This document shows, one piece after another, positions 42,619 to 64,000 of a stretch of DNA of 64,000 nucleotides. Origin of the DNA: a virus; IMG/VR virus record IMGVR_UViG_3300027963_000048, positions 32,001 through 96,000 of that record, one strand, 5' to 3'. The translations under genes were made by a program, and so were the position numbers. The notes beneath the pieces were generated by a model. That model made no database searches and had not been told where the DNA came from. It was given only the letters and a program-made list of their open reading frames with translations. Each line of letters opens with the position of its first letter. Position 1 is the stretch's first letter.

Positions 42619-42620
42619 CA

Positions 42621-48292: not shown

Positions 48293-48327
48293 TGTATTAA
48301 ATTAAGAACAAAATTATCTGACGGTTC

Positions 48328-48564
48328 ATGGAGGGATCTATGAGGAAGAATCGCGCTTCTGTCGAATTCGCTTTGCACTATGCAATCTATCGTTTGAATT
48401 ATCATCATGAATCCGGAATGGCAGAAAAGGTGGATAACTTGTTGCGTGAGCTGGCATCCATTGACGCTGATGAGGCCGGCGAGTTCGTGACACGTGATAG
48501 ATTGGAAACTACAAGACAAACTGCTTTGACTATTGTAGAATATGCCAATGGATCGCTTGTGTAG
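48328..48564 (+). CDS. Hypothetical protein
   Basis: GGAGG before ATG 48340. Confidence 0.45.
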   Translation: MEGSMRKNRASVEFALHYAIYRLNYHHESGMAEKVDNLLRELASIDADEAGEFVTRDRLETTRQTALTIVEYANGSLV

Positions 48565-48602
48565 TTAATCTCGTATGTTTCCTCGGTGGAACCATGCGAG
48601 AT

Positions 48603-49151: not shown

Positions 49152-49191
49152 TGTTATCTCCTTTACATGTATTTTCGATGGTAAATGATCG

Positions 49192-49443
49192 CTAGTCGAT
49201 GATTGTAAGTTCCTCTGGTTTGTAGCCGATTATGAGTACTTCTCCGCATCTGCCTTTCCAGGATATGATAGCGTAGCCGTCTTTTAGCGCGGTGATTGCG
49301 TCTGTTACTGTTTCGGTGACGTCGTCTCCGTTGTATTTTGGTTTTCCATTGGTTTGTCCTACGATTAATGGGCGTATGTCGAACTTGATGAGTGGTTCAT
49401 CGTTTAAGGTTTTCCATAATGCTTTTTTGGTGATCTGGGTCAT
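49192..49443 (-). CDS. Hypothetical protein
   Basis: GGAG RBS. Confidence 0.5.
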   Translation of the reverse strand: MTQITKKALWKTLNDEPLIKFDIRPLIVGQTNGKPKYNGDDVTETVTDAITALKDGYAIISWKGRCGEVLIIGYKPEELTIID

Positions 49444-49595
49444 TGTGATGCTCCGTTTGTGATGTTGTGACTGGCTAATTGTAGCAGGTTTGATATTGTT
49501 TAATAATTATGTGTGTTGTATTGGAGGGTTATTTTTCCTATGTTCGTGGTCTGTCACATCATGCCGGGAAATTCACCAGTACTTGGAGTGATGAA

Positions 49596-50744
49596 ATGAA
49601 CTTTGCAGCTGGCACTGGCTTTGAGTTGCGACCTTATCAGCAGAGGATTATAAAGAAAGTGACAGACATGTTCAAGGGTGAATATGTCAAGAATGACCAG
49701 AAGCAGGTTTATAATAGCGTTGTGATTGAGAGTCCTACTGGGTCTGGTAAGACTTGTATGATGCTTCTTACCGCTAGAGAAATGCAGAAGAGTATTCCCG
49801 GCTTGTATGTTTGTTGGTTTGCTATGCGTCGCAATTTGTTGCGGCAGGCAGCTGAGGAGAATACGCGTCGTGGTGTTGGAGTTGACATTCAGTTCTTTTC
49901 TATGTTTGGGAAAGAATTCGAAGATGTTTTGAGAGCTAAGGCTGAGGGTCGTAAGATCCTTGTGGTGTTGGATGAATATCAGCATGATAGTTGTAATACT
50001 ATGGCTAATATTCACAATGTGATACAGCCTGATTTTGTACTTGGTGGTACTGCTACACCTTACCGTACTGATAGCGCTAGTTTGAGCTATCAGGCGATTG
50101 TGAAGGATGCTGGGATTCATACGTTGATTACTGAGGGTTTTTTGAGTCAGTATGATCATTATTGTATAGAGGATTGGAAGCCTGAGACGGTAGCTCGTCA
50201 TTACTTGGCTGATCGTAGTAAGTGGGGCAAGAGTTTATTTTATTTCGTTAACACGAATTTGTGCCAGGAATTCCATGCGATTTTGCAGGCTAACGGTGTT
50301 GAGTCTGAGGTTGTCACTGCTAATAGTGATGATGAGGCGCAGATAGCTCGGTTTGAGTCTGGTGAGATTGATGTTTTGATTAATTGTATGAAGCTTACGG
50401 AGGGTTTTGATTGCCCTGCTCTTAGAACTGTATGGGTGCGTGATAGTGTGAAGGGTCCAACTGTGCAGATGGGTGGTCGGGTGCTTCGGAAGTTTGGTAA
50501 TTTGCCTGTTAAGCAGATTGTGCAGAGTGTTGCCACACGTGTGCCATTCACTAGGGTTGCTAAGCCTCGCTATCAGACTTTGTTTAAGGATGGTAAGTGG
50601 TCGAGTTTGACTATTAATCCTAAGATGGAGCAGATATCGATTATGAGTCGTGTTGCTTGCGCTAGCGCTATTACTGAGATGCCTCAGTTTATTACCAAGA
50701 ATAAGCGTAAGAAGTCTCGGATCTTTGGAGCTCCTTTGGATTAA
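49596..50744 (+). CDS. SF2 DEAD/DEAH-like helicase (ResIII type)
   Basis: LRPYQ, SPTGSGKT, VLDEYQH, GTATPYR, LTEGFDCP, QMGGRVLR. Confidence 0.9.
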   Translation: MNFAAGTGFELRPYQQRIIKKVTDMFKGEYVKNDQKQVYNSVVIESPTGSGKTCMMLLTAREMQKSIPGLYVCWFAMRRNLLRQAAEENTRRGVGVDIQFFSMFGKEFEDVLRAKAEGRKILVVLDEYQHDSCNTMANIHNVIQPDFVLGGTATPYRTDSASLSYQAIVKDAGIHTLITEGFLSQYDHYCIEDWKPETVARHYLADRSKWGKSLFYFVNTNLCQEFHAILQANGVESEVVTANSDDEAQIARFESGEIDVLINCMKLTEGFDCPALRTVWVRDSVKGPTVQMGGRVLRKFGNLPVKQIVQSVATRVPFTRVAKPRYQTLFKDGKWSSLTINPKMEQISIMSRVACASAITEMPQFITKNKRKKSRIFGAPLD

Positions 50745-50821
50745 GTATTATCCTATAATATCTTTTGTGTTTCGATATTGTCATATAGTATTGTGGTTTT
50801 GGTGATTTTTAACAAGAGGAG

Positions 50822-51952
50822 ATGATGATGATGACGACTTTTAATTACGTGACCACCAATGTTAAGTCTTTGCGAGCTCACGTTGATGAGCAGCGGACGA
50901 AAACCGGTCGGTTGTTACGCAAGACTTGCGACAAGATTGAGATTGATGGTCAGGCTGCCCATCCGACCTCTAGGTTTTGGAATAGCTTGTATAGCATGTA
51001 CGGGTTCAATGGTGCGTTTTTCAAGTACTTCAGCCATGATGAAGTGTTCACGCGTCTCCAGGAGCGTGATGATGATAGGGAGATTCGGGTGTGTGTGGAG
51101 AGCGATAATGGGGTTGATAAGTTGCTTGCTTGTACAAATCCCAATTCTGGTCTGATCACTTATGATGAGTTGATGGATTTGACTAGCACCTTGGGTGGTG
51201 ACAAGGTTCGTTATGCCAATGGTGTGGTTGAGTCGTGTCACAAACCTGCGGTTGGTGCTGGTGATGTGTCGATTGGTGGTGATCAGTTTACACCACATGT
51301 TACGCTTTCAGCACCTATCGATGGTTATGGGTTGCCTAGTTTGTATTTGAGCTTGCTGCGTCAGGTGTGTTCGAATGGGTTGGTTGCTATGGATAAGGCT
51401 TTCCAGAGTCGGATTTCGGTTGGTAAGAAGGATGGCAATGTTTCTTATAGCATTGCTCGCCATTTGCAAGGTTATGGTAATGATGAGGGTTATTCTGCGA
51501 TCAGGCAGCGGATTTCGTCGTCGCAGACTTCTAGAGCGTCGTTGTTTGAGGTGACTGATCTTTATAACGCTATCAGCCGTGTTAAGGAGAATATTTCTAG
51601 TGTTGCACCAGAGGATACCGCTGGTTCGATGGTGCAGCAGGAATACGGGATGAGCAATCGGTTTAGCGTGTCGAGATCTTTGGTTAATCTGGCTGGTGAT
51701 GTGTCGAGCTTGTATGGTTTAGCGTCCACTAGCATGGTTAATACTAAGAAATTGAAGACGTTGCCAGCTAAGTGTAGTGTGTATGACTTGATCAATTTTG
51801 CTACTGAGGTAGCTACTCACCATTCTGATACTACTGCTGCTCGGCGTTTGCATGGGTGGGTTGGTAGTTTGATTAGTAACGAGTATGATCTTGAGGGTGC
51901 TAAGATGACTTTGGATAGCAATGGCTTCAAGGAATTACACCTTAGTGCATAA
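50822..51952 (+). CDS. DUF932-like protein
   Basis: IDG.G....Y....RQVCSNGLV; S.YDLINF.TE.A.H. Confidence 0.55.
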   Translation: MMMMTTFNYVTTNVKSLRAHVDEQRTKTGRLLRKTCDKIEIDGQAAHPTSRFWNSLYSMYGFNGAFFKYFSHDEVFTRLQERDDDREIRVCVESDNGVDKLLACTNPNSGLITYDELMDLTSTLGGDKVRYANGVVESCHKPAVGAGDVSIGGDQFTPHVTLSAPIDGYGLPSLYLSLLRQVCSNGLVAMDKAFQSRISVGKKDGNVSYSIARHLQGYGNDEGYSAIRQRISSSQTSRASLFEVTDLYNAISRVKENISSVAPEDTAGSMVQQEYGMSNRFSVSRSLVNLAGDVSSLYGLASTSMVNTKKLKTLPAKCSVYDLINFATEVATHHSDTTAARRLHGWVGSLISNEYDLEGAKMTLDSNGFKELHLSA

Positions 51953-52042
51953 TATTTATTGGTTTAGGTGCGAGGGGGATTGCCCTCTCGCACTTTCTTT
52001 GTCACATGTGGTCGGTGGTTCACGTGTTAGGAGGGGTGTGTT

Positions 52043-52534
52043 ATGGCGTTTACTAAGATTTGGGAAGATTTTAAAGCGTGCAAGGAGCCGTATTTTCGAC
52101 TCGAATTGCCTAAGCCGTCGATGGAGTTAACTGCTGCTGCGCCTCCTCGTATTAGGAAGATACATGAGGAAGCACCTAATTTGACGATTGTGGAAATTAA
52201 GACTGATTTGCTGGATGATGGGCGGTTTGCATGTCTGAAGGCAATGCGCGATTTGGATGATCAGAGTGCTTTTGGATTGCTGTTGACGTGGTGGAGTATG
52301 TTCGCTTTGGGCATTGGGATGAAGCAGGTTATCCCTATTGATAGGCTCTCTGGAAAGGGGTTGGCAGAGGATTTACATCAATGTGGTTTTGCTAATGTGG
52401 TTAAAAGAAAGAAATCGGGTGCTGGATTGTACACTTATCATAGTGTACTGTCCAAGGTGGGGAAGCATACTAAAATTATTGGTGTGGATATTGAAGCTGC
52501 CGATTGCCCTTGTAAATTTTCAAGGAGTGCGTAA
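52043..52534 (+). CDS. Hypothetical protein
   Basis: AGGAGG RBS and promoter element. Confidence 0.6.
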   Translation: MAFTKIWEDFKACKEPYFRLELPKPSMELTAAAPPRIRKIHEEAPNLTIVEIKTDLLDDGRFACLKAMRDLDDQSAFGLLLTWWSMFALGIGMKQVIPIDRLSGKGLAEDLHQCGFANVVKRKKSGAGLYTYHSVLSKVGKHTKIIGVDIEAADCPCKFSRSA

Positions 52535-52785
52535 TGCCTAGTTTTAAGTTGACTATTGGTGTTGAGGTGGATGTTGATAATGTGATGGATCCTACTACTA
52601 GTTTGAATGTTATTAACAATAGGATCTATGATAAATGTATTGCTCGGGATGATGTAGAGTTCGATGGTATGGGTTTTACAAATGGGCAGTGCGAATTCGG
52701 GTTCACAGTTGAAGCGGTTGAATTGGCTGATGCTTTGAGTGTGGTTGTTGAATGTATTAGGAATTCTAACATTGGAGGTGTATGA
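52534..52785 (+). CDS. Hypothetical protein
   Basis: AAGGAG RBS. Confidence 0.55.
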   Translation: MPSFKLTIGVEVDVDNVMDPTTSLNVINNRIYDKCIARDDVEFDGMGFTNGQCEFGFTVEAVELADALSVVVECIRNSNIGGV

Positions 52786-52997
52786 TGGGTAGAGCTAAGG
52801 TTGGTGGCGTAGGTGCACGTGATAATCGTGAATCTATTTTACTGCGGGTTGAGCCGTCTGTGGCTGCTTTGATTCGTGAGGCTGCTAGGCGTGAGGAGCG
52901 TACTCTTACTGCTGTAATGACGCGTGCTTTGCGATCTTATTTGAAGACCGAGCATGGTCCTGCTGCTGTCGATGAATATTGTAATTCTGCAGGGTGA
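52782..52997 (+). CDS. Ribbon-helix-helix DNA-binding protein
   Basis: SILLRVEPSVAALIREAARREERTLTAVMTRALRSYL. Confidence 0.65.
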   Translation: MMGRAKVGGVGARDNRESILLRVEPSVAALIREAARREERTLTAVMTRALRSYLKTEHGPAAVDEYCNSAG

Positions 52998-53088
52998 TAG
53001 GGGATTTCTTGCTCATCTGATTTCTGTCACAATTGGTTGGTGAGGGAGAACGGTTTTTCCTCACCAAATGCGAAAGCGGGAGGTTGCG

Positions 53089-53730
53089 ATGAGTTTCTTG
53101 AATAATCTAAAGTCCAAGTCGGTTAACAAGGCTACTAAGACTGGTGCAAAGAAGGGCACCAGTTGGATGCTAACTGAGGCAGCTCATATTGACGCGGTCA
53201 ACGAGATCGTGAAGCTCGACCGTGAGGTTGATGCTATCAATGCCAAGATTAATGTTCGGAAGAACATTCTTAAGGGTGTTGCTCAGGAAAAATGGCTTTC
53301 TGATTATGTCCGTGAATCTGGATCTCCAGAATCTCCGATGAAGCTGTTGACTCCTGAGGGAGAGAGCTTGACCTATGTGGTGCAGGATCGCAGCGGCCAG
53401 GTGAAGGTCTCTGATGATCTTCGTGAGCAGCTCGTAGTTGAGATTGGGTCGGATGCGGTTGATCGTCTCTTGTACGAGGAGACCACGTTCAGCTTCAATC
53501 GTGTGGCGTTGATGAACCCACAGATTGAGAAGGCTGTTAGCAAGGCCCTTGAGGCCTTGGTTGAGCAGGTGGCCTCTATCGATCCTGAGATTTCGTTGTT
53601 GGATGTCGAGCAGAAGGTGGCTTATAAGAAGCTTGATAATTTGACTGAGATTTGTGGTCATGATAGGGGTGCTATCTCCCGATTCGTTGAATTAATCGGC
53701 AGTGCTTTGGTCCGATATTTGAAGGTTTAA
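53089..53730 (+). CDS. Hypothetical protein
   Basis: GGAGG RBS and promoter element. Confidence 0.65.
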   Translation: MSFLNNLKSKSVNKATKTGAKKGTSWMLTEAAHIDAVNEIVKLDREVDAINAKINVRKNILKGVAQEKWLSDYVRESGSPESPMKLLTPEGESLTYVVQDRSGQVKVSDDLREQLVVEIGSDAVDRLLYEETTFSFNRVALMNPQIEKAVSKALEALVEQVASIDPEISLLDVEQKVAYKKLDNLTEICGHDRGAISRFVELIGSALVRYLKV

Positions 53731-53821
53731 GGTCGTCCCTTGATGGGGTGGGGGGATTTCTCTCCCACCCCTTTATTGTCACATCGAATTGTCAGTTTGA
53801 TAATAATAAGGAGGCGCAACG

Positions 53822-54025
53822 ATGGAAGCTGCTGTTTGGGCTAATCAGTTGGATTGTAACAGCATTATCAAGCACCTTGATGTTGGTGCGTTGTTTAAAT
53901 TTCCAAATGATGATATGGTGATGTTATATCACGGGCGCGGGTGGTATTCAAATCCGACCCATCCCAGGAATCCTTTGATTCGGTTTAAGACTGGGATGAA
54001 TACTGGAGTTATTAGAATTAATTAA
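53822..54025 (+). CDS. Hypothetical protein
   Basis: GAGG RBS and promoter element. Confidence 0.55.
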   Translation: MEAAVWANQLDCNSIIKHLDVGALFKFPNDDMVMLYHGRGWYSNPTHPRNPLIRFKTGMNTGVIRIN

Positions 54026-54039
54026 TTGGAGGGTGTGCG

Positions 54040-54294
54040 ATGGCTGTTAATGCGGTGAAGGTTACTGATCGTGTTTCTGGAATTGCTGGCATGAATGCCA
54101 AGTTGAAAGAGGCGTTGGCTTCCGTGTGGGTTTTGGAAGGGCACGATGGCTTTTGGTCTTATCAAGTTGGCGCCAAGCCTGATACTACTCCACCAAGTGG
54201 TGCTGTGTTGGGGAATGTGGGTGGTGGTATGGTTGCCTTATTTGTTGAGAATCAGGTATTTAATCATTTGGTTGAGATTGGTAGTGGTGCGTAG
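54040..54294 (+). CDS. Hypothetical protein
   Basis: GGAGG RBS. Confidence 0.55.
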   Translation: MAVNAVKVTDRVSGIAGMNAKLKEALASVWVLEGHDGFWSYQVGAKPDTTPPSGAVLGNVGGGMVALFVENQVFNHLVEIGSGA

Positions 54295-54360
54295 TAGGGA
54301 TTTCTCTCCTCTCTCAACCCTGTCACAATTTTGTGTGGTGGTAATAACAAGGAGTGAGAA

Positions 54361-54567
54361 ATGACAACTTACATGATAGTTCGAAGATATCAGAATGCCT
54401 GTAGGGGGGGGGTGGTAGAGCGTGGTTTGAGCCTTGAGGAGGCTCAGGCTCACTGCCGTAACCCAGAAACGTCCTCTAAAACTGCCACATCCTCATGGGC
54501 TGTGACATTAACTGAGAAACGTGGCCCGCGGTTCGACGGGTACGAGGACGAGGGTTCGTTTCTATAA
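54361..54567 (+). CDS. Small phage protein, paralogue of 58638
   Basis: GLSLEEAQAHCRNPETSS.TA...FDGY. Confidence 0.7.
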   Translation: MTTYMIVRRYQNACRGGVVERGLSLEEAQAHCRNPETSSKTATSSWAVTLTEKRGPRFDGYEDEGSFL

Positions 54568-54572
54568 GGAGT

Positions 54573-54758
54573 ATGGTGATGTGGCAAGATTGGTCAGCGA
54601 TCCTCAATAGTGGGGATCGCACTGCGATTATCAGTTGGCTTGCCTGGAATGATCCAAGTGGGGTTTATCTGGATAGTGATTGCGAGCTTGAAGGCTTGCC
54701 TTGTCTAGATATTGATGCTGCTAGGGATTATATGCGTCGGGCATTGGAGAATGGATAG
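54573..54758 (+). CDS. Hypothetical protein
   Basis: AAGGAG RBS; WLAWNDP.GVY.D. Confidence 0.55.
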   Translation: MVMWQDWSAILNSGDRTAIISWLAWNDPSGVYLDSDCELEGLPCLDIDAARDYMRRALENG

Positions 54759-54824
54759 TGGGGGGGGGATTTTCATCCTCTTCTGGTTGTGCCACAATAT
54801 CGTGTCCTTTTTTGGAGGTGAGCG

Positions 54825-55031
54825 ATGATAAAGAAGCAATCGTTGTCGGTGTGGCGTAAGCAGTTTGCTGCTGAATACTTGCGTCGCGTCGGTATTACCA
54901 TTGAGGATGGTGGTGCTGATGGGGTTGTTGAAAATTATTTTTCTGATAGCTTCACGCCAGCGGAGGCGGTGGAGCGTGAGATAGAGAAGTATGATTTGGC
55001 TGATATGTCTAACATGTTTGGGTGGATGTAA
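54825..55031 (+). CDS. Hypothetical protein
   Basis: GGAGG RBS and promoter element. Confidence 0.6.
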   Translation: MIKKQSLSVWRKQFAAEYLRRVGITIEDGGADGVVENYFSDSFTPAEAVEREIEKYDLADMSNMFGWM

Positions 55032-55051
55032 ACACTTAGAAAGGGGTTAAT

Positions 55052-55327
55052 ATGTCATCTGATACTGCTGGTAAGTGTGTTGAAACAATGTCGAATGTTT
55101 CGCAAGATGATTTTGAGGGTTTGTTTGAATGTGAGGATGTGTTTCGTAGTGATATAGATAAAGCGATACAGTGTGTTTATTATTTTGATGGAGTTGGTGG
55201 TGAGGTGGCTCATTATTTTCCGTCGTTGAAGAGTGGCACGATTTTTAAAGTGCCACGGATTTGGCATGAGTCTTTTAAACCCAATCTTACTTTCGTTAGG
55301 AAATGGTTTGAAGGCGAGGAGATATAA
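55052..55327 (+). CDS. Hypothetical protein
   Basis: 91 aa ORF. Confidence 0.5.
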   Translation: MSSDTAGKCVETMSNVSQDDFEGLFECEDVFRSDIDKAIQCVYYFDGVGGEVAHYFPSLKSGTIFKVPRIWHESFKPNLTFVRKWFEGEEI

Positions 55328-55387
55328 ATATATTCTCCCATGTCGTTTGGGCTGTCACAATTTGATGTAACCAAAGGAGATTTTGCG

Positions 55388-55738
55388 ATGAAAGTGATGA
55401 ATCACGCTGAATACCAAAAGAACCTCCAGAAGAAAAGCTGGAGTGCGTTGTGGTACACTGCAAAGGACGCAATGGAGGCTGCGCAGGCCTACCCTGAGGG
55501 AGAGAACGCGTCGTATTACCTCGATGAGGTCAATTATTGCCTGGATGAGATTGCCAGGCGTAACAGGCTTGAATTGAAGGTGAAGGTGAAAGATCAAGAC
55601 ACCATTCACACGATCTACTCCGACTTGTCGAAGGTGGGTTTTGTGATGAGGGAGATTTACCCTACTGGTCACTTGGTCAGTTGCAGAGCTTTCGATAAGG
55701 CTGCTGCTACTGAGTTGTTGTGTGGTGGGCTCAAATAG
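55388..55738 (+). CDS. Hypothetical phage protein
   Basis: AAGGAG RBS; L.Y..KDA.EA....P...N..YY.DEV.YC..E. Confidence 0.6.
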   Translation: MKVMNHAEYQKNLQKKSWSALWYTAKDAMEAAQAYPEGENASYYLDEVNYCLDEIARRNRLELKVKVKDQDTIHTIYSDLSKVGFVMREIYPTGHLVSCRAFDKAAATELLCGGLK

Positions 55739-55839
55739 TGGGGAATCTCTCGCACCCCTTTCTTTAGTGCTTTGTGTGCAAATGGTACGATTACTGCGGA
55801 TTTGTAGATTAGGGTAAAGCGTCGCTTTGATTTGTTGCG

Positions 55840-56070
55840 ACAGTTGCGTGAGCTTGATGCGTAACGGCACCCAGTTGCCGAGCCACCTTGTACTTGTGGG
55901 GTGGAGCTGGAGGTATAGCCCCTGAGCCTTACGTTGTTCGGTGCAATCACCTGTGCCTTATATCGGGGGATGGTGTTGGCGCGAACAGACTCTCCGTCTG
56001 TTACAAGCCCTAGGTTAGGTGCGTACTGCGTTGGTATTAAACACTAAACCTAGATTCAAGTAATTGAGAG
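55840..56070 (+). ncRNA. Candidate structured ncRNA (HEARO/omega-RNA-like features)
   Basis: Non-coding gap with stems GGCA/TGCC, CCACC/GGTGG, AACAGAC/GTCTGTT, CTAGGTT/AACCTAG. Confidence 0.3.
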
Positions 56071-56154
56071 ATTCTTGGAGCTTTGATGGGGTGCCACAAT
56101 TGAGAGGTCAGCAATTGGAGCTGTGTGGCACCCCATCATTTTTGGAGATGAACA

Positions 56155-56439
56155 ATGGATACTGATGAATCTTACTCGAAGTTGAAAACTCGTGCAGAGC
56201 GATTGTTGGTATTAGTGCGTCAAAACGCGCCCTTTGAAATTATTTTCAATGAGATTATGCTGTTGCATAATATGATGCCTGAGTTTGAGGAAGCTTACAT
56301 TAAATGGGTTGTAAGCCAGGCGAAACGTACAATTGAGAAGAATAGGAATACACGCGGGTTATGTTCAGAATGCCCGGCACAGTTGGGGGATGGTGAGGAG
56401 ATCTGGTGTGAAGCGTGTGGCAAGCAATATGATGTGTAA
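56155..56439 (+). CDS. Hypothetical protein with C-terminal zinc ribbon
   Basis: CSEC...CEAC; GGAG RBS. Confidence 0.6.
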   Translation: MDTDESYSKLKTRAERLLVLVRQNAPFEIIFNEIMLLHNMMPEFEEAYIKWVVSQAKRTIEKNRNTRGLCSECPAQLGDGEEIWCEACGKQYDV

Positions 56440-56445
56440 TTGATG

Positions 56446-56476
56446 GGGAGGCAGCCGAGAGGCTGCCTCCCTTTTT
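56446..56476 (+). terminator. Intrinsic terminator
   Basis: GGGAGGCAGCC-GAGA-GGCTGCCTCCC-TTTTT. Confidence 0.85.
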
Positions 56477-56550
56477 ATTCATATATATAAGGATGCTGGG
56501 CGAGGATTTCTCCCCGCCCAGCGTGTTTCCTCTCTGGAACATGTAGTATG

Positions 56551-56883
56551 CTACTGGATGAGGGAATTAAATATATGCATTCCATGGCCGCGGACAATAA
56601 AACTAGCGTAATCGGTTGCAATGTCGAAGTTTTCGAAAATATGTTTGGTCAATTCGCCCTTCATAATTAATGGGATGTGTTTTTCTCTTTTTAAAAGAGC
56701 AATTTGGTCTGGTCCTGTTCTTGCTTCGTTTCGCCTATCGAAAATGCCGACGAGGCCATCGCATAGGGTGACAAAATCTGGTTCATCCATCACAACCGTA
56801 GTGATATGTCGGCCATTTACATTGAATTCTTTTTTGAATGGTGCGCTCATATTGCTCCTGTGGTTAAGTCGTGTCCGTTTCAT
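56551..56883 (-). CDS. Hypothetical protein
   Basis: AGGAG before an internal ATG (MSAPF). Confidence 0.5.
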   Translation of the reverse strand: MKRTRLNHRSNMSAPFKKEFNVNGRHITTVVMDEPDFVTLCDGLVGIFDRRNEARTGPDQIALLKREKHIPLIMKGELTKHIFENFDIATDYASFIVRGHGMHIFNSLIQ

Positions 56884-56974
56884 TTTGGCATCAGCCGGGT
56901 GGTAGAGTAATTACTCCACCACCGTTTTTGTTAAGCGAAGAGTGGAAAGCCTGGGACTTTTCCAGAGCTGTTGG

Positions 56975-57274
56975 TTACGAGGCGGCCCAGAGCTGTTGGT
57001 TGGCGCTGTGAGATATGCGGTCGGTTACATTCTCCGCCACTACGATCTCTAGGATCTTATTAGCGACGCGTGTTAGGGTGTCTCGGTCTGTGTGCCAACT
57101 GTAGCTAGTGCACGCTGATCCGTCTTGAATTGGCTCGTCTTTGTAGTAGATGGTATAGCGGACGAGTGGTTGGTCATTGTCTGCTTCGCCATAGTCTCCA
57201 TTTAATCCTTCTCCGTCATATGAGAGGATAACTTGATGGTCGCCGGTGCTACTTACTATGTCATCGAAATGCAT
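56975..57274 (-). CDS. Hypothetical protein
   Basis: AAGGAG RBS; GEGL.GDY...D.D.PL.R. Confidence 0.6.
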   Translation of the reverse strand: MHFDDIVSSTGDHQVILSYDGEGLNGDYGEADNDQPLVRYTIYYKDEPIQDGSACTSYSWHTDRDTLTRVANKILEIVVAENVTDRISHSANQQLWAAS

Positions 57275-57275
57275 G

Positions 57276-57431
57276 TTAGCTCCTTTGGGGTAGGTTGTTG
57301 TGGGCGTCTTGTGGCACCTTAGGTGCTACTGCGAATTTCTCTGGCCACTTGGGTGCCTCCGGGCAATCTTTGGCGTGAAATTGAACGTCAAAGAAGAAAC
57401 TATACTCGTATTTGCAATGCGGGCAGCTCAT
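57276..57431 (-). CDS. Small zinc-finger-like protein
   Basis: CPHC...H..DC; AGGAG RBS; minus-strand promoter element. Confidence 0.45.
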   Translation of the reverse strand: MSCPHCKYEYSFFFDVQFHAKDCPEAPKWPEKFAVAPKVPQDAHNNLPQRS

Positions 57432-57562
57432 TTGATCTCCTTGTGTTGGATCACCTCGATTGTTTGTGACAGCGCAGTTGATGTGGGATAATGGGTTTTC
57501 CCCTGTCGTTATGTCTGTCACAATTTGATGCAGTTTGATTCCCAGTAACCGCGGAGGCTAAG

Positions 57563-57853
57563 ATGAGATATCGTGAGTTCATCAAACCTTGGATCGTGGG
57601 CCCGATGGCAGAGTGGGAAATCATGGAGATCGGTCGGGCATGCCGCACGCCAAATGGTAAGGGCATCAACCTTACGTGTCTCACCGACGGAGGTGAGAGG
57701 GTGTTGAGTGTGCGAAAAACCGGCGGCGAAAAATACAACAACGTTGCCATCACAGAATGGTGGGACAAATACCTTGGCCTGATGCCATCGCGTCTGGACT
57801 GCCCTAAGACCCCAAAGGGAAGCGTGGTAGTGAAGGTGGTCCCGATAGAATAG
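57563..57853 (+). CDS. Hypothetical protein
   Basis: GGAGG RBS and promoter element. Confidence 0.55.
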   Translation: MRYREFIKPWIVGPMAEWEIMEIGRACRTPNGKGINLTCLTDGGERVLSVRKTGGEKYNNVAITEWWDKYLGLMPSRLDCPKTPKGSVVVKVVPIE

Positions 57854-57943
57854 TGGACAGGCATGTTGGTGGGGGGATTTCTCTCCCCGCCTTTGACTGT
57901 CACAGGAGGGAGTGACGGGACGAATGACACACGGAGAAACGGA

Positions 57944-58210
57944 ATGCTAGACCAAATTGCGGAAATTGCGAATATGGTACAAGCTCAACCAATCATCAAG
58001 TTTGTCGAGACAATCGACGACGAGTGGCACCGGTGGGTTTTGTCTGGCGCCAGAGTTGGGTCCGCTGCCCCTTGGGCTCTCACGTTCGATACTGAAATAG
58101 ATGGTCGAGATCTTGTTGTGGAGAGTGCTGTTGGGCTTTCTGAACCAGAGAGTCAAGAATTGTTGCTCCAGATCCATCAGCTTGTCGAATTCCCAGAAGT
58201 GCCAGAGTAG
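57944..58210 (+). CDS. Hypothetical protein
   Basis: GGAG RBS and promoter element. Confidence 0.55.
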   Translation: MLDQIAEIANMVQAQPIIKFVETIDDEWHRWVLSGARVGSAAPWALTFDTEIDGRDLVVESAVGLSEPESQELLLQIHQLVEFPEVPE

Positions 58211-58280
58211 GGGGATTTTTCTCCCCTCGCCTTTGGCTGCCACAGAATTATGTAACCGACCTCAAACCAAGGAGACGACG

Positions 58281-58565
58281 ATGGAATTCAAAAAAGGCAT
58301 CCTTTGGGGCGGGAAATTTGGACGCCCACCCACGGTCGAGCTCCCCACGCCGGGAGCCAATCAGGGGAAGATCATTGATTACATTCAAGAGGAACACAGG
58401 ATTTTTTTCGAGGTCGGCTATTTTGCCGACGGGCTCTGGTGTTCCTTCGAAAGGGCTTTCGACCATGAGGAAGCATTAGAGAAACAAGCTAGGCTGGCAT
58501 ATAGTCACCAGCGTGACTGGGCAATCGTACAGGTTGACATCAAGATCACACGAAAGTTTGTGTAG
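58281..58565 (+). CDS. Hypothetical protein
   Basis: AAGGAG RBS and promoter element. Confidence 0.55.
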   Translation: MEFKKGILWGGKFGRPPTVELPTPGANQGKIIDYIQEEHRIFFEVGYFADGLWCSFERAFDHEEALEKQARLAYSHQRDWAIVQVDIKITRKFV

Positions 58566-58637
58566 GGGGGGATTTCTCCCTATTTGGCAGACTGTCACAA
58601 TTTACTGGTGGTGAAATTGGTGTCAGGGAGTGCGACA

Positions 58638-58838
58638 ATGACTTACAGTATTACGCGTTTTTTTGAAAACGGCAGCCGGGAATCGATCGCTACGGGTTTG
58701 AGCCTAGAGGAGGCGCAGACTCACTGCAAGGATCCGCAGACAAGTTCCAGGACTGCGTCGGAGTCCTGGGCTGTGGCTCTGACTGCTGAGCGCGGAAGGT
58801 GGTTTGATGGGTACGAGTCAGAGGATAATTTTATCTAG
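58638..58838 (+). CDS. Small phage protein, paralogue of 54361
   Basis: GLSLEEAQTHCKDPQTSSRTA...WFDGY. Confidence 0.7.
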   Translation: MTYSITRFFENGSRESIATGLSLEEAQTHCKDPQTSSRTASESWAVALTAERGRWFDGYESEDNFI

Positions 58839-58916
58839 GGGTGATTATCCTATTCATGGGACCCTGCCACAATTTGTTGTGGTGGGGCTTGTGGGTCATA
58901 GAAAGGGATATTAGCT

Positions 58917-59198
58917 ATGGCTGTGTGGCGTTATCGTGACTGTGTCAGTACGTTTAACGTTGGCGGTCAAGACCGCCAAGTTCGTATCCACTGGATCGAA
59001 CATCGTCGTAATGTCGATAATGTCGAGCTCGACTATTATGAGTTCGTGGACGGGTTAGACCCAGTAGAACTGGATCTAGACTTGGTGGAGTTCGAAGCGG
59101 TTCAAAATTCGACCCATTATTTGAGGTGGAATCATGATTGCGATTTGGAAGAATTGCCTAGGTTAAATTTAGAAGAAGGAGATGGTAATGTACGGTGA
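58917..59198 (+). CDS. Hypothetical acidic protein
   Basis: Promoter element upstream. Confidence 0.5.
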   Translation: MAVWRYRDCVSTFNVGGQDRQVRIHWIEHRRNVDNVELDYYEFVDGLDPVELDLDLVEFEAVQNSTHYLRWNHDCDLEELPRLNLEEGDGNVR

Positions 59199-59370
59199 AC
59201 CCTCATCTTATTATGATTTCTTCACACCTACGTTTAGCGAGCTAATTCATGATTACGCTCGTGGCGTAGGTGACCAACATCCTGATCGCTGTTGGCTCAC
59301 CACCCCTTATGACACCTTTGTACGTAACCCATTTTATGCCGGACCGGAACAGCCTTGCCCTGAACTTTAA
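59182..59370 (+). CDS. Hypothetical phage protein
   Basis: W..T.YDT...NPFY.GP.QP.PE. Confidence 0.6.
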   Translation: MVMYGEPSSYYDFFTPTFSELIHDYARGVGDQHPDRCWLTTPYDTFVRNPFYAGPEQPCPEL

Positions 59371-59457
59371 TCGAACGCAAACGGGTGGGGGGGATTTCTT
59401 CCCCCACCTTCTACTGCCACAAAATAATGTAACCGACCAATAACCAAGGAGGCCAAA

Positions 59458-59625
59458 ATGATCGAGCTAGAATTTGACATGTCTGTGCAGTTAACTGACA
59501 CCGAGAAGCTGTCGGCCATGCTCAGGTCGATTGCTGACCAAATCGACAGCGGCGCGTGTGGCAGCAAGATCATTAAGGATGGCTTGGCCGGCCAGTGGAG
59601 ACTCTACGACCCATACGAGCAATAG
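59458..59625 (+). CDS. Small protein (not in ORF track)
   Basis: AAGGAGG RBS, promoter element; MLRSIADQI...G..G.W. Confidence 0.6.
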   Translation: MIELEFDMSVQLTDTEKLSAMLRSIADQIDSGACGSKIIKDGLAGQWRLYDPYEQ

Positions 59626-59735
59626 TGGAGGGGGGATTTCTTCATCTGGCTTCTATTGTCATAATTTGGTGTAACCAAGGTAGTCGGGCTGTCACAGCTC
59701 GATGGGGACGGAAAGCTAACGTTAGGAGGTCTGGG

Positions 59736-60128
59736 ATGTCTTACTTGGAAGCTGCGTTTGATGCGGTGATCAAGGACAGCAAGCCGTCGGAGAAGTGGTA
59801 TGTGGTCCTCATGGAGGATAGCTCCTATTATGGAGGCCCGGAAGAAGGGGGCTGGTGGGGACATGATACTGACGTGCTGAAGTACGCGGTATTTAATAAC
59901 GAGGAAGCGGCTTTGCAAGCCAAGGAGCGCGTGAAGGAGTTGGCTGCTGAGTTGGAGGCCCAAGCTCGCACTGAGTATGGTGAGGGGTGTTTACGGCAGT
60001 TGGAGTGGTTGGATGCTCGCGGCTTGGATGCGGATTTCTTTCCTGAGGATGATGGTCCGAGTAGGTATTGGGTTTATTGTGGCCAGGAGATTCCTCAGCC
60101 CTCGGTTGGTCCGAGGCATTATGAGTAA
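59736..60128 (+). CDS. Conserved phage hypothetical protein
   Basis: YGGPEEGGWW...PRHYE; AGGAGG RBS. Confidence 0.7.
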   Translation: MSYLEAAFDAVIKDSKPSEKWYVVLMEDSSYYGGPEEGGWWGHDTDVLKYAVFNNEEAALQAKERVKELAAELEAQARTEYGEGCLRQLEWLDARGLDADFFPEDDGPSRYWVYCGQEIPQPSVGPRHYE

Positions 60129-60139
60129 ATAGGTTATTG

Positions 60140-60222
60140 CTCACCGTGGTGTAATGGCAGCCACAACGGACTTAAAATCCGTTGCTCGAAAGGGCGTATG
60201 GGTTCGAGTCCCATCGGTGAGA
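60140..60222 (+). tRNA. trnL: tRNA-Leu (anticodon TAA)
   Basis: Acceptor stem CTCACCG/CGGTGAG+A, anticodon arm ACGGA-CTTAAAA-TCCGT, long variable arm, GGTTCGAGTCC T-arm; CCA not encoded. Confidence 0.93.
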
Positions 60223-60240
60223 TTTGAAAGGATGTCAAGG

Positions 60241-60615
60241 ATGGTTAAGGTTCGGTTTCATTTGGCGCGTGGTGCCAATTTTAAGACGTGGCAGGTTATT
60301 GATAATGGTGTGGTTCGGTATTACGATCCAGATGCGGTGTGTTTAAGGATGTTCGGTTGTCGTTTGAAGAATCGTCGTCGAGTGGCAGATAAGATTTTTG
60401 CTGGCGAGGATAAGACGGTGTGTGCTTGGATTGATTGTGAGCGGGTTGAGGTGGGCGATAGTTCCTCCTTGGAAACACGAGATAATCAGAATATATTGTC
60501 TTTTAATCCGAAGGTTGTACCTTATTGGGTTCGCGATGGTGAGTGTGCTGAGAATCTCGATGGGATGGTATTTTCTGAAATAATTAGTAGGGGTCGTCGT
60601 CTTATTGTAATCTAA
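60241..60615 (+). CDS. Conserved phage hypothetical protein
   Basis: KVRFHL.RG.NF..WQV, L.N....A.KI..G..KTVCAWI.C. Confidence 0.65.
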   Translation: MVKVRFHLARGANFKTWQVIDNGVVRYYDPDAVCLRMFGCRLKNRRRVADKIFAGEDKTVCAWIDCERVEVGDSSSLETRDNQNILSFNPKVVPYWVRDGECAENLDGMVFSEIISRGRRLIVI

Positions 60616-60675
60616 TGGGAATGGGTGGAGTTCACCCATTCCACATTGTTCGTTTAGTCCAGGGTCTTGTGGTGG

Positions 60676-60906
60676 TTAGTTGGTGCCCCATGGGTTGGAA
60701 GGCAACAAGTGCCTATACGCTTTGCACAAGTATTCTTCAAGGTCTTCATCCTCCTGGAGGGCTTTCATGGCGTCAGAAGTGTTGCCATGCACGCGTTCAC
60801 TTATTACACCATTCGGGTAAGATACTTGCACGATGCGGAAACTGAGACCTTCCCATTCCACTGGCTTTCTGAAGATTCTGACTTTATCACTGGCGTAATC
60901 GAACAT
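60676..60906 (-). CDS. Hypothetical protein
   Basis: AAGGAG RBS and minus-strand promoter element. Confidence 0.55.
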   Translation of the reverse strand: MFDYASDKVRIFRKPVEWEGLSFRIVQVSYPNGVISERVHGNTSDAMKALQEDEDLEEYLCKAYRHLLPSNPWGTN

Positions 60907-61035
60907 CAGTCTTCTCCTTGTGGCTGGGGGCGGCTTGCCGGTCGTCAGCTCGCTCCCCCCGGCCCCGCTTTATTATGACAGCCCCCGGCGCCGGGGGAAA
61001 TCCCCCCCCGCAGCGCGGCGGAGGGGCATCACCTG

Positions 61036-61254
61036 TTATTGCTCGGCATTGGCACAGAATTGTGACAACTTCCAGGACGCTTCACTGCCGAGGACGTCGG
61101 CTAGTGCTCTGTGAATTTCCGTCGTGGGTCCTCCGGCGGAGACCCACGAGTGGTATTCGTTGAGGTGTTTCAATGTTTGGCCATATTCGCTGATTGCGTA
61201 CGCTTCGTACGCTTCTAGCAGGCAAGCTTCAGGGTCCAACTCTTCAGGGTCCAT
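61036..61254 (-). CDS. Hypothetical protein
   Basis: AAGGAGG RBS and minus-strand promoter element. Confidence 0.6.
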   Translation of the reverse strand: MDPEELDPEACLLEAYEAYAISEYGQTLKHLNEYHSWVSAGGPTTEIHRALADVLGSEASWKLSQFCANAEQ

Positions 61255-61398
61255 CTTAAACCTCCTTATTCTAGTGCCGTCACATCATTCTGTGGCAGTG
61301 CGTGCGAGATAGGAGAATCCCTATATGGGGGGGATTTCCTCCTGGCGTGACGGGTGTCACAGATGGGTGTGACCGAAGTAACCCTAGGAGACCCAACG

Positions 61399-61587
61399 AT
61401 GGAATTCTTGAAATCAGTCGAATTCGAGTTTGAAGGCAGCCTCTTCATTGCCACTCTGACTGACTCGGACGCGATGTCGGTGGCGGAGATCGATGTGTTT
61501 GGGCGAGACGATGACGCAAGAAATCGTCTCGAAGATGACGATTTCTATGACAGGATCTATCAGCATGTGAACAATCGTTTCGTTTAA
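61399..61587 (+). CDS. Hypothetical acidic protein
   Basis: AGGAG RBS and promoter element. Confidence 0.55.
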   Translation: MEFLKSVEFEFEGSLFIATLTDSDAMSVAEIDVFGRDDDARNRLEDDDFYDRIYQHVNNRFV

Positions 61588-61666
61588 TGTTGCGTGTGGT
61601 GGAGGGGGGGATTTTTCCCCTCCACCATTGCTGTCACAGTAAATCGTTAATGCAAAGGGGACTGCG

Positions 61667-61855
61667 ATGGAAAGAAAAAGTGGCGTACCGGTGTTGCACT
61701 TCTGCGATGAGGACCTGACACTCATCGGAATCGATCCAGAGCGCGTTGATGACGAAGCGTTCGAGCGCATCCTAGACGGGTTACGCGAATATTACAACAC
61801 ATCCTTCACGGATGTGTTGCAGGACATTGTGGCAGGTGTGTTGGACGGAGATTAG
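61667..61855 (+). CDS. Hypothetical acidic protein
   Basis: Promoter element upstream. Confidence 0.55.
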   Translation: MERKSGVPVLHFCDEDLTLIGIDPERVDDEAFERILDGLREYYNTSFTDVLQDIVAGVLDGD

Positions 61856-61917
61856 CCAACTGGCGGCAGTGGGGATTCCTCCCTCACCTGCCGACTGCCA
61901 TAAGTTGGTATAAGGAG

Positions 61918-62094
61918 ATGATGATGAAAAACGTCAGCGCACCGAAGCGTGTAGAACGCAAAATCACGATTGTTATCGACCAGACTCGCGTGAGCCGTGG
62001 CCACTTGGCAACGAGTGGGGCTGGGACTCACCAAGATCGTCGCCAAAGGCGGCGAAAGACTCGGTCGGCGGCACTTATGGCTTGCATGGAATAG
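61918..62094 (+). CDS. Small basic protein (not in ORF track)
   Basis: AAGGAG RBS; RGH...GAGTHQDRRQRRRKTR. Confidence 0.6.
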   Translation: MMMKNVSAPKRVERKITIVIDQTRVSRGHLATSGAGTHQDRRQRRRKTRSAALMACME

Positions 62095-62205
62095 GGGGAT
62101 TTCTCACCTGCCTTTTGTCTGTCACAATTGGTTATGAGAAGCCAAGCCGAGTGACGCTTGGCTAGTGGGTTACTTGTCAGACCAATCATTCACATGGAGC
62201 CGAAC

Positions 62206-62391
62206 ATGACCAAGCACCAGACAGCGCTATACGAAGCAACTACCACACTGATGGCTAAGCTCTCCATAATCTCAAACTATTTGGGTGTCGCCCTTATGTA
62301 TAACGACGACGGTAAACTCAAAAAGGCGATCGAACAACTCGATGAGGCCCAGAATCTCGCCATCACCATCCACAACAGTACCTCCCGATAA
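62206..62391 (+). CDS. Hypothetical protein
   Basis: GGAG RBS and promoter element. Confidence 0.5.
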   Translation: MTKHQTALYEATTTLMAKLSIISNYLGVALMYNDDGKLKKAIEQLDEAQNLAITIHNSTSR

Positions 62392-62569
62392 AGGCATAAT
62401 CTCCCCCACGGCATCTAAAGCTTGCGTAAATGCTTCCGCAAAAACGTCGACACAAATGTAGTTGCGCACTAACCTTGGAAACGGTGCGCGAGTTCAGGTG
62501 GGGGGATTTCTCCCCCACCATTTGGCTGCCACAGTTTAACGTAACCGACCCAAAACCAAGGAGACGAAA

Positions 62570-62971
62570 ATGAGCATCAGCGATTACAACATGATGACAG
62601 TCGGCAAAGCTAATTTCACACTTGCTAATGACAAACACCGATGGACATATCAGATCAACCAAAGCAAAGACGGAAGATGCTACTTCGTCAGTGTCCTGTC
62701 CGGCGCGGACAATAACGCTGACTATGCGTACCTTGGCATCTTCAAGCCTGAGAACGGGTCAGTCAGTCTCACAAAGGCATCGCGGTTCACGCCAGAATCA
62801 ATGCCCTTCAGGGCTGTAGCCTGGCTAGTGCAAACACTCAAAAAAGGCGAGCCGCTAACTCATAACTTCGAGCTAAAATGGGCCGACCAATGCCAACGAT
62901 GTGGCAGGACACTTACTGTCCCATCATCGATAGATAGTAGAATTGGGCCAGAATGCGCTAAGAAGGTGTAA
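62570..62971 (+). CDS. DUF6011-type zinc-binding protein
   Basis: L.G.DN..DY.YLG; CQRCGRTLTVPSSI...IGPECA. Confidence 0.75.
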   Translation: MSISDYNMMTVGKANFTLANDKHRWTYQINQSKDGRCYFVSVLSGADNNADYAYLGIFKPENGSVSLTKASRFTPESMPFRAVAWLVQTLKKGEPLTHNFELKWADQCQRCGRTLTVPSSIDSRIGPECAKKV

Positions 62972-62973
62972 CC

Positions 62974-63618
62974 GTGAGGCTACCCGATGATGTTAAAGAT
63001 GTGCATCTCCTTGGAGACATCCATGGAGATTATGGTAGGCATGATCGCGTTGCTAAAAAGCACCATTATACCATTCAATTGGGTGACTTTGGTTTCAAGT
63101 ATGATTCCTTAAGAAAACACGACCCGAGTTATCACAAAGTGCTTGGTGGTAATCATGATAATTATGATCTGATTGGTAATATGCCTCACTACTTGGGTGA
63201 CTTTGGTACTTTTGAATTAAGCTCACCGGAGTTCACTTATAGTGTTATTAAAGTGTTTTATATTAGGGGTGCAGATAGCATTGATAAACAGTTGCGTACG
63301 ATTGGTGTAGATTGGTGGCAAGATGAGCAATTGACTATGGCGAGGATGAATGAGGCTTTGGATTTGTATGGTAGCTACAGGCCGGATGTTTTGTTAAGTC
63401 ATTCTCCGCCGTCGTTTGCGATTGAGTGGTTTTGTGTTCCCAGGTTACCTTTTGCGTTGACTGAGTATTGCTTGGATGTTATGCATGAGGTTTATGCTCC
63501 GAAGTTGCATATTTTTGGGCATATGCATAAGACGAAGGTTAAGAAGTTTGGATCTACTAAGTTTGTTTGTGTTGATATTAATCAGACTATCAGTTTGGTA
63601 AAGTCTTTTCGTGGGTAG
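62974..63618 (+). CDS. Calcineurin-like metallophosphoesterase
   Basis: GDIHG, QLGDFG, GNHD, SHSPP, FGHMH. Confidence 0.9.
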   Translation: MRLPDDVKDVHLLGDIHGDYGRHDRVAKKHHYTIQLGDFGFKYDSLRKHDPSYHKVLGGNHDNYDLIGNMPHYLGDFGTFELSSPEFTYSVIKVFYIRGADSIDKQLRTIGVDWWQDEQLTMARMNEALDLYGSYRPDVLLSHSPPSFAIEWFCVPRLPFALTEYCLDVMHEVYAPKLHIFGHMHKTKVKKFGSTKFVCVDINQTISLVKSFRG

Positions 63619-63663
63619 GGTTGGGTGTCACAGTTGTTTGTGGTCAAAGTGTGGAGGTGTTGA

Positions 63664-63840
63664 ATGGAGTGTTTGGGGTGCGGTAAGACGATTCCGGCTG
63701 GTCGGTTGGAGATTTTCCCTCACACGCGGTTTTGTGTGGGGTGTGTTGATAAGCACCCGCAGGGGGTTAGTTATGATTATTCGCATGTGGTGGCGCAGTC
63801 GTCGTCATCTGGGCGTAATGGGTTTGCTAAGTCGGATTAG
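63664..63840 (+). CDS. DksA/TraR C4-type zinc-finger protein (not in ORF track)
   Basis: MECLGCGKTIPAGRLEIFPHTRFCVGC; GGAGG RBS; TGTCACA at 63626. Confidence 0.8.
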   Translation: MECLGCGKTIPAGRLEIFPHTRFCVGCVDKHPQGVSYDYSHVVAQSSSSGRNGFAKSD

Positions 63841-63861
63841 ATAAGAGTTGCTGTGTTGTGG

Positions 63862-63999
63862 TTAGCAGTCCCATTTTCTGAGGGCTTTGCAGATGTCTTT
63901 GTCTGGGTTGGCTCGACAGTCGATGTTGTGCATTTTCTTTTGGCCTTCCATTCTTGCGCAGAATGATTTTCGGCGTTTTGCTTTGGCTGGTGATTTTTT
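63862..63999 (-). CDS. 3' end of a gene with the conserved phage RRKSFCARM...KWxC domain (partial)
   Basis: Reverse-strand translation KRRKSFCARMEGQKKMHNIDC...ICKALRKWDC*. Confidence 0.65.
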   Translation of the reverse strand, partial: KKSPAKAKRRKSFCARMEGQKKMHNIDCRANPDKDICKALRKWDC

Positions 64000-64000
64000 G

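Follow-up and report, generated by a model that had tools for sequence, protein, structure and literature searches.

Introduction

The closest described counterparts of the element analysed here are the promoter-early stem-loops (PeSLs) of phages RB49/phi1, PST and nt-1 (Arbiol et al. 2010, PMC2839356; Comeau et al. 2014, PMC4122927). PeSLs are units made of a promoter and a polyG/polyC stem-loop, which lie in the hyperplastic regions of T4-type phages and recombine with each other, and they were described in sigma-70-dependent coliphages and vibriophages (PMC2839356, PMC4122927). The present element is a two-box sequence, GGATTT-N17-TGYCAYA (box 1 and box 2), found in many copies in a stretch of viral DNA of 64,000 nucleotides. 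This stretch, hereafter the window, covers bases 32001-96000 of the 115.6-kb IMG/VR contig IMGVR_UViG_3300027963_000048 (G000); coordinates are those of the window unless the contig is named.

As in PeSL regions, a promoter-like sequence and a polyG...polyC stem-loop form a repeated composite, one before each small gene without known family (ORFan), in a hyperplastic region. Portal and terminase of the phage are of T4 type, and its strains differ in that region by indels and replacements with crossovers inside the units. Unlike in PeSLs, the promoter part departs from the sigma-70 consensus and lacks an AT-rich UP region, and the stem-loop, which precedes the promoter in PeSLs, wraps the −35-like box in G000 and the spacer or the −10-like box in two relatives. 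The unit therefore has every structural feature of a PeSL but one, a promoter that is not of sigma-70 type and that overlaps the stem-loop. We put the probability at roughly 60% that it is a composite cassette of PeSL type, which joins a bipartite promoter, likely read by a phage sigma factor, to a hairpin formed in read-through RNA and to a patch of homology for recombination.

Results

Abundance, Spacing and Gene Linkage of the Unit

The window contains 13 exact matches to GGATTT-N17-TGYCAYA, where shuffled sequences predict 0.01, and the whole contig contains 17. With up to two mismatches allowed, 28 matches were found in the window (6.9 expected). Scanning the whole contig with an iterated weight matrix gave 32 copies, all in one 20-kb array at 81.5–101 kb of the contig (window 49.5–69 kb). 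About 22 clear and 4–5 weak copies lie inside the window, close to the roughly 27 counted in the preliminary description of the window. Past the window end, the array runs for 5 kb more, on the minus strand there, to about window 68.9 kb (contig 100.9 kb). The most over-represented 8-mers in the array are CTGTCACA (17 occurrences, 0.6 expected) and GGGGATTT (17, with 1.1 expected), and 8-mer counts showed no comparable enrichment outside it.

The geometry of the unit is rigid. The spacer measures 17 nt in 28 of the 32 copies and 16–19 nt in the remainder, including the copy at 58213, for which a 19-nt spacer had already been recorded. A same-strand Shine–Dalgarno (SD) sequence and start codon, opening a reading frame of at least 35 codons, follow 31 of the 32 copies, as expected from the earlier claim that orientation follows the downstream gene. 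From the end of box 2 to the ATG there are 18–79 nt (median 37), and the coordinates and box-to-start distances given previously were essentially right. The stop codon of the upstream same-strand gene is found 0–66 nt, usually 0–30 nt, before box 1. What is repeated is a unit of about 45 bp, in about 30 copies, each before a small gene of mostly unknown function; the products of the array genes belong to no family for the most part, or only to families of unknown function.

Sigma-70-like sites in the array number 31, against 20.6 ± 5.0, with no clear enrichment. Alternative registers, either a sigma-70 −35 box (TTGAC/TTGGC) before box 2 or an extended −10 element (TGnCACAnT), gave no consistent partner box. 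A late-promoter candidate noticed by eye in upstream regions, ATTTAAT, found no support in a simple test. The exact motif was absent from all 20 portal relatives scanned, and the exact-pattern scan of IMG/VR returned only single matches per contig, at chance level. A contig near-identical to G000 (G001) adds 47 kb, which brings the phage sequence seen to 163 kb in total; these extra 47 kb hold no motif copies.

Stem-Loop, T-Rich Stretch and Downstream TG

The weight matrix gives the consensus GGGGGG-ATTT-CTCCCC ... TTTG(G)C-TGYCACA-(R)N5-TG. The G-run and the C-run pair with each other, and GGATTT supplies the last base pairs and the loop of the resulting hairpin, which begins at the stop codon of the upstream gene. 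The hairpin, the T-rich stretch before box 2 and the TG after it are all missing from the preliminary description. Folding gave a mean free energy of −15.5 kcal/mol, with stems that vary between copies. Hairpins centred on the apex have a median of 9.5 pairs, and stems of 7 pairs or more occur in 28 of the 32 copies and in 13% of random sites. The distance from apex to box 2 stays at 17 nt across stems of 5 to 13 pairs, and the copies at 53002, 54298 and 58842 keep the 17-nt spacing with no hairpin at all.

The TG is conserved 7–8 nt after box 2 (frequency of G at 8 nt, 0.87), where a sigma-70-family promoter would be expected to start transcription (5–9 nt after the downstream box), and it is the predicted start site. 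About half of the copies have a T-rich stretch between stem and box 2, and in some copies box 2 is followed by another small stem (GTCAC...GTGAC). No Rfam family matches the unit, the only Rfam match being a tRNA. Near-identical 5′ leaders (..TGTAACCGACC..AACCAAGGAG..ATG) precede different genes at 58245–58280, 59422–59457 and 62534–62569, which suggests that leader and promoter have been copied as one block.

The Same Skeleton in Related Jumbo Phages

The contig has a CheckV completeness of about 32%. It encodes both a T4-type portal (Portal_T4 match, E 1e-73) and a large terminase with a T4-type N-terminal domain, together with a piece of a DnaE-type polymerase. By portal, it is related to uncultured phages whose sequences reach 408 kb, and the DNA sequencing runs in which the array is present come from freshwater or lake metagenomes. 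The source is therefore a fragment of a T4-related jumbo phage from lakes, a distant jumbo relative outside the Tevenvirinae.

Two of the relatives carry arrays of their own: G003 (IMGVR_UViG_3300000976_000008; complete, 408 kb) and G006 (IMGVR_UViG_3300013121_000020; complete). The three phages are divergent, with portals 62–81% identical. A common skeleton, GAWTT-N18-GYMACA, has 16 matches in G000, 26 in G003 and 14 in G006, against 0, 1 and 0 for the reversed controls, while the other relatives have 0–5 matches, at chance level (reversed controls 0–2). No repeated cassette motif is present in the complete relative G008 (34% GC).

De novo word counts in G003 found 37–39 copies of TTAACGG-N13-GCAACA before minus-strand genes, in arrays at 184–217, 239–241 and 287–292 kb, with a gap of 13 nt in 37 of 39 copies. 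Read in gene direction, a copy consists of the stop codon, gA(a/t)TTAACGGG-N10-yTyGCAACA and ...ATTCCCC..SD-ATG. When the phages are aligned on the G of GYCACA, the register is the same: GAaTT of G003 falls under GGATT, and GCAACA under GYCACA. G003 also has the first three array genes of the window (for a helicase, a DUF932 protein and a 213-aa protein), and there, too, motif copies are found near them. The array of G006, at 224–268 kb, is made up of about 15 copies of GATTTACGG-N13-GCCACA-N6-TG, with pairs of SD and start codon 25–46 nt downstream; GCCACA-N6-TG holds the same downstream TG as in G000.

The hairpin does not keep its place among these phages. It surrounds box 1 in G000, lies in the spacer in G006 (small; GGCGGG/CCCGCC) and surrounds box 2 in G003 (GTCTGCCCC/GGGGCAGAC), so that the conserved part consists of the boxes, their spacing and their position before genes. 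Since boxes and spacing are kept while the hairpin moves, a sigma-type promoter, recognized as duplex DNA by a reader with two modules, explains the unit better than a motif acting purely in RNA, and a two-box bipartite promoter is the likely reading of these sequences. The two boxes, the rigid spacing, the orientation towards genes and the common register in G003 and G006 are all as in bipartite promoters of the sigma-70 family, whose spacers measure 16–18 bp.

The preliminary description had proposed a sigma-type element from the fixed spacing. With the same boxes and spacing in two divergent relatives, this remains the best explanation, although the element is not the isolated oddity that it seemed, as PeSL-like cassettes are of a known kind. 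The mismatch to TTGACA/TATAAT pointed out there holds for G000; in the relatives, box 1 (GATTTACGG or GAWTTAACGGG) is TTGACA-like (TTTAC/TTAAC), and only the −10-like box, GYMACA, is truly unusual.

Cassette Differences between Lake Strains

Contigs from four lake runs were aligned to the array. Strain X6 matches the reference up to GGATTTCT of the copy at 59634 and diverges at 59641, inside that copy. After the breakpoint, it has a different 15 bases, then TGCCACA and a foreign leader, which restores an intact copy with a 17-nt spacer. The replacement continues into sequence absent from the reference, and X6 returns to the reference at 62094, three bases before GGATTT of the copy at 62097. 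In strain X11, the copy at 58570 is joined to the copy at 59392 (58580 to 59411, both inside copies), which removes three genes, and the sequence up to box 2 of the copy at 62504 is also replaced. Lake strains thus differ by replacement or deletion of cassettes with breakpoints inside the motif, as compared at the level of contigs. Several of the breakpoints listed fall inside units, which cover about 6% of the stretch.

Candidate Readers of the Motif

Searches of G000, G001 and four complete relatives found no protein of the RNA polymerase beta family, and a family search for T7-like RNA polymerases, run without a positive control, was also negative. Sigma-70 family proteins are encoded by all complete relatives. 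In G000, a 313-aa sigma factor (contig 304–1245, plus strand, outside the window) has sigma regions 2 and 4. Its region 4.2 (VTRERVRQIESKA) equals that of primary sigmas, while region 2.3/2.4 has lost the WW..Q segment; a deletion of 4 residues takes out the WW of region 2.3. Among 5.8 billion proteins it has only two relatives, at 57–59% identity, and in IMG/VR the query retrieved only the near-identical contig G001. G003 and G006 each encode a sigma of the same make, with canonical region 4.2 and rebuilt 2.3/2.4 lacking WW/Q. The match between the 313-aa sigma and the motif is circumstantial.

Two further candidates are weaker. A 604-aa protein (14135–15949, minus strand) is conserved in at least seven related jumbo phages and belongs to no Pfam or PHROG family; a sigma region-2-like N-terminal domain is probable. 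In hhalign, residues 133–196 fall on sigma region 2.1–2.4 with E 0.0024 and a probability of only 12%. In an all-against-all structure scan, every row touching residues ~40–192 was a sigma region 2, with matches to RpoS (Z 6.2), SigB (Z 6.1), sigma-70 (Z 5.8, root-mean-square deviation 2.1) and sigma-32 (Z 5.8). A sequence profile gave nothing significant against PDB and Pfam, and Foldseek gave nothing. The protein may be a highly divergent sigma-like factor. A 189-aa protein (30519–31088, plus strand) carries a sigma region-4-like helix-turn-helix (ITKNRVRQL). Against the superfamily model of extracytoplasmic function (ECF) sigma factors, only the region-4 part aligned, with 30.9 bits, below the cut-off of 42.9. 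VIA-align gave Z scores of up to 7.5, with sigma N-terminal domains at Z 5.1–6.4 among unrelated helical bundles, and Foldseek found nothing significant. The 163 kb of phage sequence seen encode no clear ECF sigma.

We place the chance that the motif is read by a phage-encoded sigma factor at about even odds. The candidates for it are one clear sigma and two weaker sigma-like proteins.

Individual Copies and Neighbouring Features

The part of the array inside the window spans 49529–64000, as delimited by the weight-matrix scan and 8-mer enrichment. The copies below are on the plus strand unless stated otherwise, and are given with the gene that follows.

The array opens with a weak copy, TTATTT-N17-TGTCACA (49529–49558), before the helicase gene 49596–50744. 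At 51977–52006, GGATTG..TGTCACA sits in a 13-bp hairpin before gene 52043–52534. Exact copies follow at 53002–53031 (gene 53089–53730), 53754–53783 with a strong hairpin (gene 53822–54025), 54298–54327 (gene 54361–54567) and 54767–54796 (gene 54825–55031). The copy at 55330–55359, before gene 55388–55738, has a weak box 1 and a good box 2 (CTGTCACA). Two minus-strand copies are poor: a degenerate one at 56884–56913 (TAATTA apex in a hairpin, box 2 TGCCAAA; gene 56850–56551) and a weak one, GAAATT-N17-TGCCACA, at 57310–57339 (gene 57274–56975). A further minus-strand copy reported at 57465–57494 is present, with a weak box 1 (CCATTA).

GGGTTT..TGTCACA at 57493–57522 precedes gene 57563–57853, an exact copy with hairpin at 57875–57904 precedes gene 57944–58210, and the copy with the 19-nt spacer, at 58213–58244, precedes gene 58281–58565. 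The exact copy at 58570–58599 (gene 58638–58838) is the left breakpoint of the strain deletion. It is followed by a weak copy, TGATTA..TGCCACA, at 58842–58871 (gene 58917–59198), and by an exact copy with hairpin at 59392–59421 (gene 59458–59625), the right breakpoint of the deletion. Strain X6 diverges within the exact copy at 59634–59663 (gene 59736–60128).

An exact minus-strand copy at 60974–61003 serves gene 60906–60676. The divergent pair reported before was recovered as described: GGATTC..TGCCACA at 61291–61320 on the minus strand (gene 61254–61036) stands back to back with the exact copy at 61332–61361 (gene 61399–61587). Exact copies are also found at 61609–61638, with a strong hairpin (gene 61667–61855), at 62097–62126, where X6 re-joins the reference (gene 62206–62391), and at 62504–62533, with hairpin (gene 62570–62971, DUF6011). 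GGATTC..TGCCATA at 61873–61902 precedes gene 61921–62094, and the last copy in the window is a weak one, GTCTTT..TGTCACA, at 63603–63632. The minus-strand copy reported at 34819–34848 (AGATTT-N17-TGTCACA) is real, and it stands isolated outside the array.

Inside the array of ORFans, a tRNA-Leu(TAA) was identified by Rfam at 60140–60222 (plus strand). Lake contigs from other organisms pile up on it, and a host search of GTDB genomes with a 30-nt exact piece of this tRNA gave 0 matches. A tRNA-Met lies at about 106.94 kb of the contig. Just past the window end, at 64300–64950, depth rises to a spike of 59, with many joints and loose ends in the lake contigs, and this could be a repeated or widely shared sequence. 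Strand composition is very asymmetric at 40000–56000, with a GC skew of −0.36 and an AT skew of +0.49 at 42–44 kb; the GC skew flips to +0.3 at 50–56 kb. An AAA+ protein is encoded at 39573–40946 (plus strand), preceded by the weak motif copy at 39558 that had been reported earlier; its G003 homologue is 48% identical, and its match to Sigma54_activat is below threshold (E 0.0018). Outside the window, a class II ribonucleotide reductase of 1463 aa (L009:5877-10268, plus strand) is split by an intein with a LAGLIDADG homing endonuclease.

Discussion

Proposed Mechanism and Points against It

In the composite cassette that we favour, GGATTT as −35-like box and TGYCACA as −10-like box, 17 bp apart, would form a bipartite promoter for bacterial RNA polymerase, directed by a non-housekeeping sigma that is most likely encoded by the phage. 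Transcription would begin at the conserved TG, so that the leader would measure about 30 nt and contain a strong SD. The hairpin of the G-run and the C-run would fold in read-through RNA and may insulate or end the upstream transcript, as a terminator, an attenuator or a 3′ stabiliser. With about 30 copies of its ~45 bp, the unit would also act as a homology patch where cassettes are exchanged, lost and gained.

Several observations weigh against this mechanism. Box 2 lacks TAnnnT, and we know of no sigma documented to read GYMACA. A −35 box within a hairpin loop is odd for sigma region 4, which binds duplex DNA. The residues with which region 4.2 reads TTGACA are intact in the 313-aa sigma, yet box 1 of G000 (GGATTTCTC) is only TTT-like. 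G008 lacks a repeated motif although its sigma, too, is aberrant and it has a homologue of the 604-aa protein; the presence of such factors therefore does not predict the motif. Intrinsic terminators have a GC-rich hairpin followed directly by a U-tract; the hairpins of G000 are strong, but a TTT run follows in 15 of the 32 copies and only 2 copies pass a strict rule of 5 T in 8. With so few strict terminators, and with relatives whose hairpins have no U-tracts, the terminator role is doubtful. Finally, none of the runs that hold the array is an RNA run, and the strain junctions come from metagenome assemblies, where chimeras at repeats are possible.

Alternative Explanations

Of the alternatives, a sigma factor of the host survives best, though we regard it as unlikely. 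The motif would be read by the housekeeping sigma of an unusual host, or by an alternative or ECF-type sigma that the phage exploits, and the array genes could then be early in the strict sense. As a rule, arrays of ORFans are early, and the PeSL promoters of RB49/phi1 are early promoters for host sigma-70 (PMC2839356). The boxes also recall ECF promoters, with a GGA-type −35 and a GTC/CAC-type −10: the ECF41 promoter is TGTCACA-N16-CGTC (PMC3426412), and the hrp box of HrpL is GGAACC-N16-CCACNNA (e.g., PMC10384996). Shared with these promoters are a G-rich upstream box, a downstream box that contains C and differs from TATAAT (CCAC/GTC), and a rigid spacer of ~16–17 nt; the likeness is a loose one. 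In ECF41, TGTCACA forms the −35 box, whereas in G000 it is the downstream one, the AAC of ECF −35 boxes is absent, and the GTC of TGTCACA alternates with GCC. The earlier remark on ECF41 was thus correct as to the box (PMC3426412), without helping to identify the reader.

A single skeleton in three phages could reflect related hosts; the samples are from freshwater. Against a host reader, the three phages are as divergent as their portals indicate, the details of their boxes differ as if each had a reader of its own, and each has a sigma of its own in which the region that reads the −10 box is altered. All group-1 sigmas, to our knowledge, read a −10 box of TAnnnT type, which box 2 is not.

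We find it improbable that the unit works mainly in RNA, its hairpin and single-stranded box forming a site for processing, termination or protein binding on polycistronic transcripts. Strong hairpins with variable stems, the start of the unit at the upstream stop codon and the small second stem of some copies would suit such a site. However, several copies keep both boxes at 17 nt with no hairpin, and in G003 and G006 the hairpin is elsewhere or absent while boxes and spacing are kept. Back-to-back copies such as 61320/61332 have no upstream gene to terminate or process, and the lack of any Rfam match also argues against this explanation.

Less probable still is a site used primarily by a dedicated recombinase, in integron- or attC-like capture, with expression secondary. 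The strain breakpoints inside the unit fit this idea, which the PeSL authors also raised (PMC2839356), and the imperfect palindrome GGGGGATTTCTCCCC could be a protein site. Yet no integrase or recombinase was seen beside the array in the scanned proteins, the conserved TG and the strict placing and direction of the unit relative to the start codon fit expression, and general homologous recombination of phages suffices for repeats of less than 50 bp (PMC2839356).

A sigma-54-type promoter, with TGYCAC as −24, the TG as −12 and the AAA+ protein (39573–40946) as activator, is very improbable: TGCCAC is one base off TGGCAC, a TG follows ~13 nt later and the AAA+ protein has its sub-threshold Sigma54_activat match, but there is no GG doublet (31 of 32 copies have a pyrimidine in place of the second G, and the GG-N10-GC test failed), the TG is one base too far and followed by K instead of C, so that the −12 GC is not conserved, the conserved box 1 at 17 nt upstream has no place, and GCAACA of G003 does not fit.

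Comparison with Other Phage Promoter Systems

Like the phage sigma classes of SPO1 (gp28, gp33/34) and T4 (gp55) (PMC13401047), the proposed system would rely on host core RNA polymerase, with one or more sigma-70-family proteins of the phage's own and a consensus confined to one class of genes. Unlike in those classes, the promoter sits in shuffling cassettes, GATTT-N18-GYMACA matches none of their consensus sequences, and the link to a sigma is putative.

As in single-strand hairpin promoters such as those of the N4 virion RNA polymerase, a promoter element coincides with a DNA hairpin. The hairpins of N4 have stems of 5–7 bp and a 3-nt loop, whereas the stems of G000 are long and variable. 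Also unlike in N4, no phage RNA polymerase was found, and the position of the hairpin shifts between relatives.

A bolder version of the sigma-type reading is possible, with the odds somewhat against it. In the sub-clade of G000, G003 and G006, a phage sigma-like factor and host core RNA polymerase may form an orthogonal transcription channel on GATTT-N18-GYMACA, a promoter class that no cellular sigma is known to us to read, with the hairpin as part of the mechanism. The factor could be one of the sigmas with canonical region 4.2 and rebuilt 2.3/2.4, or the 604-aa protein, maybe delivered with the virion. The hairpin could present one box in extruded DNA, or couple termination of one cassette to initiation of the next.

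Cassettes of PeSL type are already known, and the unit is not a new kind of system. What is new is a probable promoter class, private and non-canonical, in a small clade of lake jumbo phages; from one phage to another, the hairpin can change its place along the promoter with the boxes kept as they are. If the promoter reading holds, about 30, 39 and 15 copies in three phages would provide a naturally replicated promoter set for an undescribed sigma specificity, with GYMACA as −10-like box. Their candidate cognate sigmas, which lack the usual −10-reading residues, may then offer an orthogonal sigma/promoter part. The idea behind PeSLs, that regulatory cassettes are the joints at which genes are shuffled, would thereby extend to uncultured jumbo phages with a private promoter.

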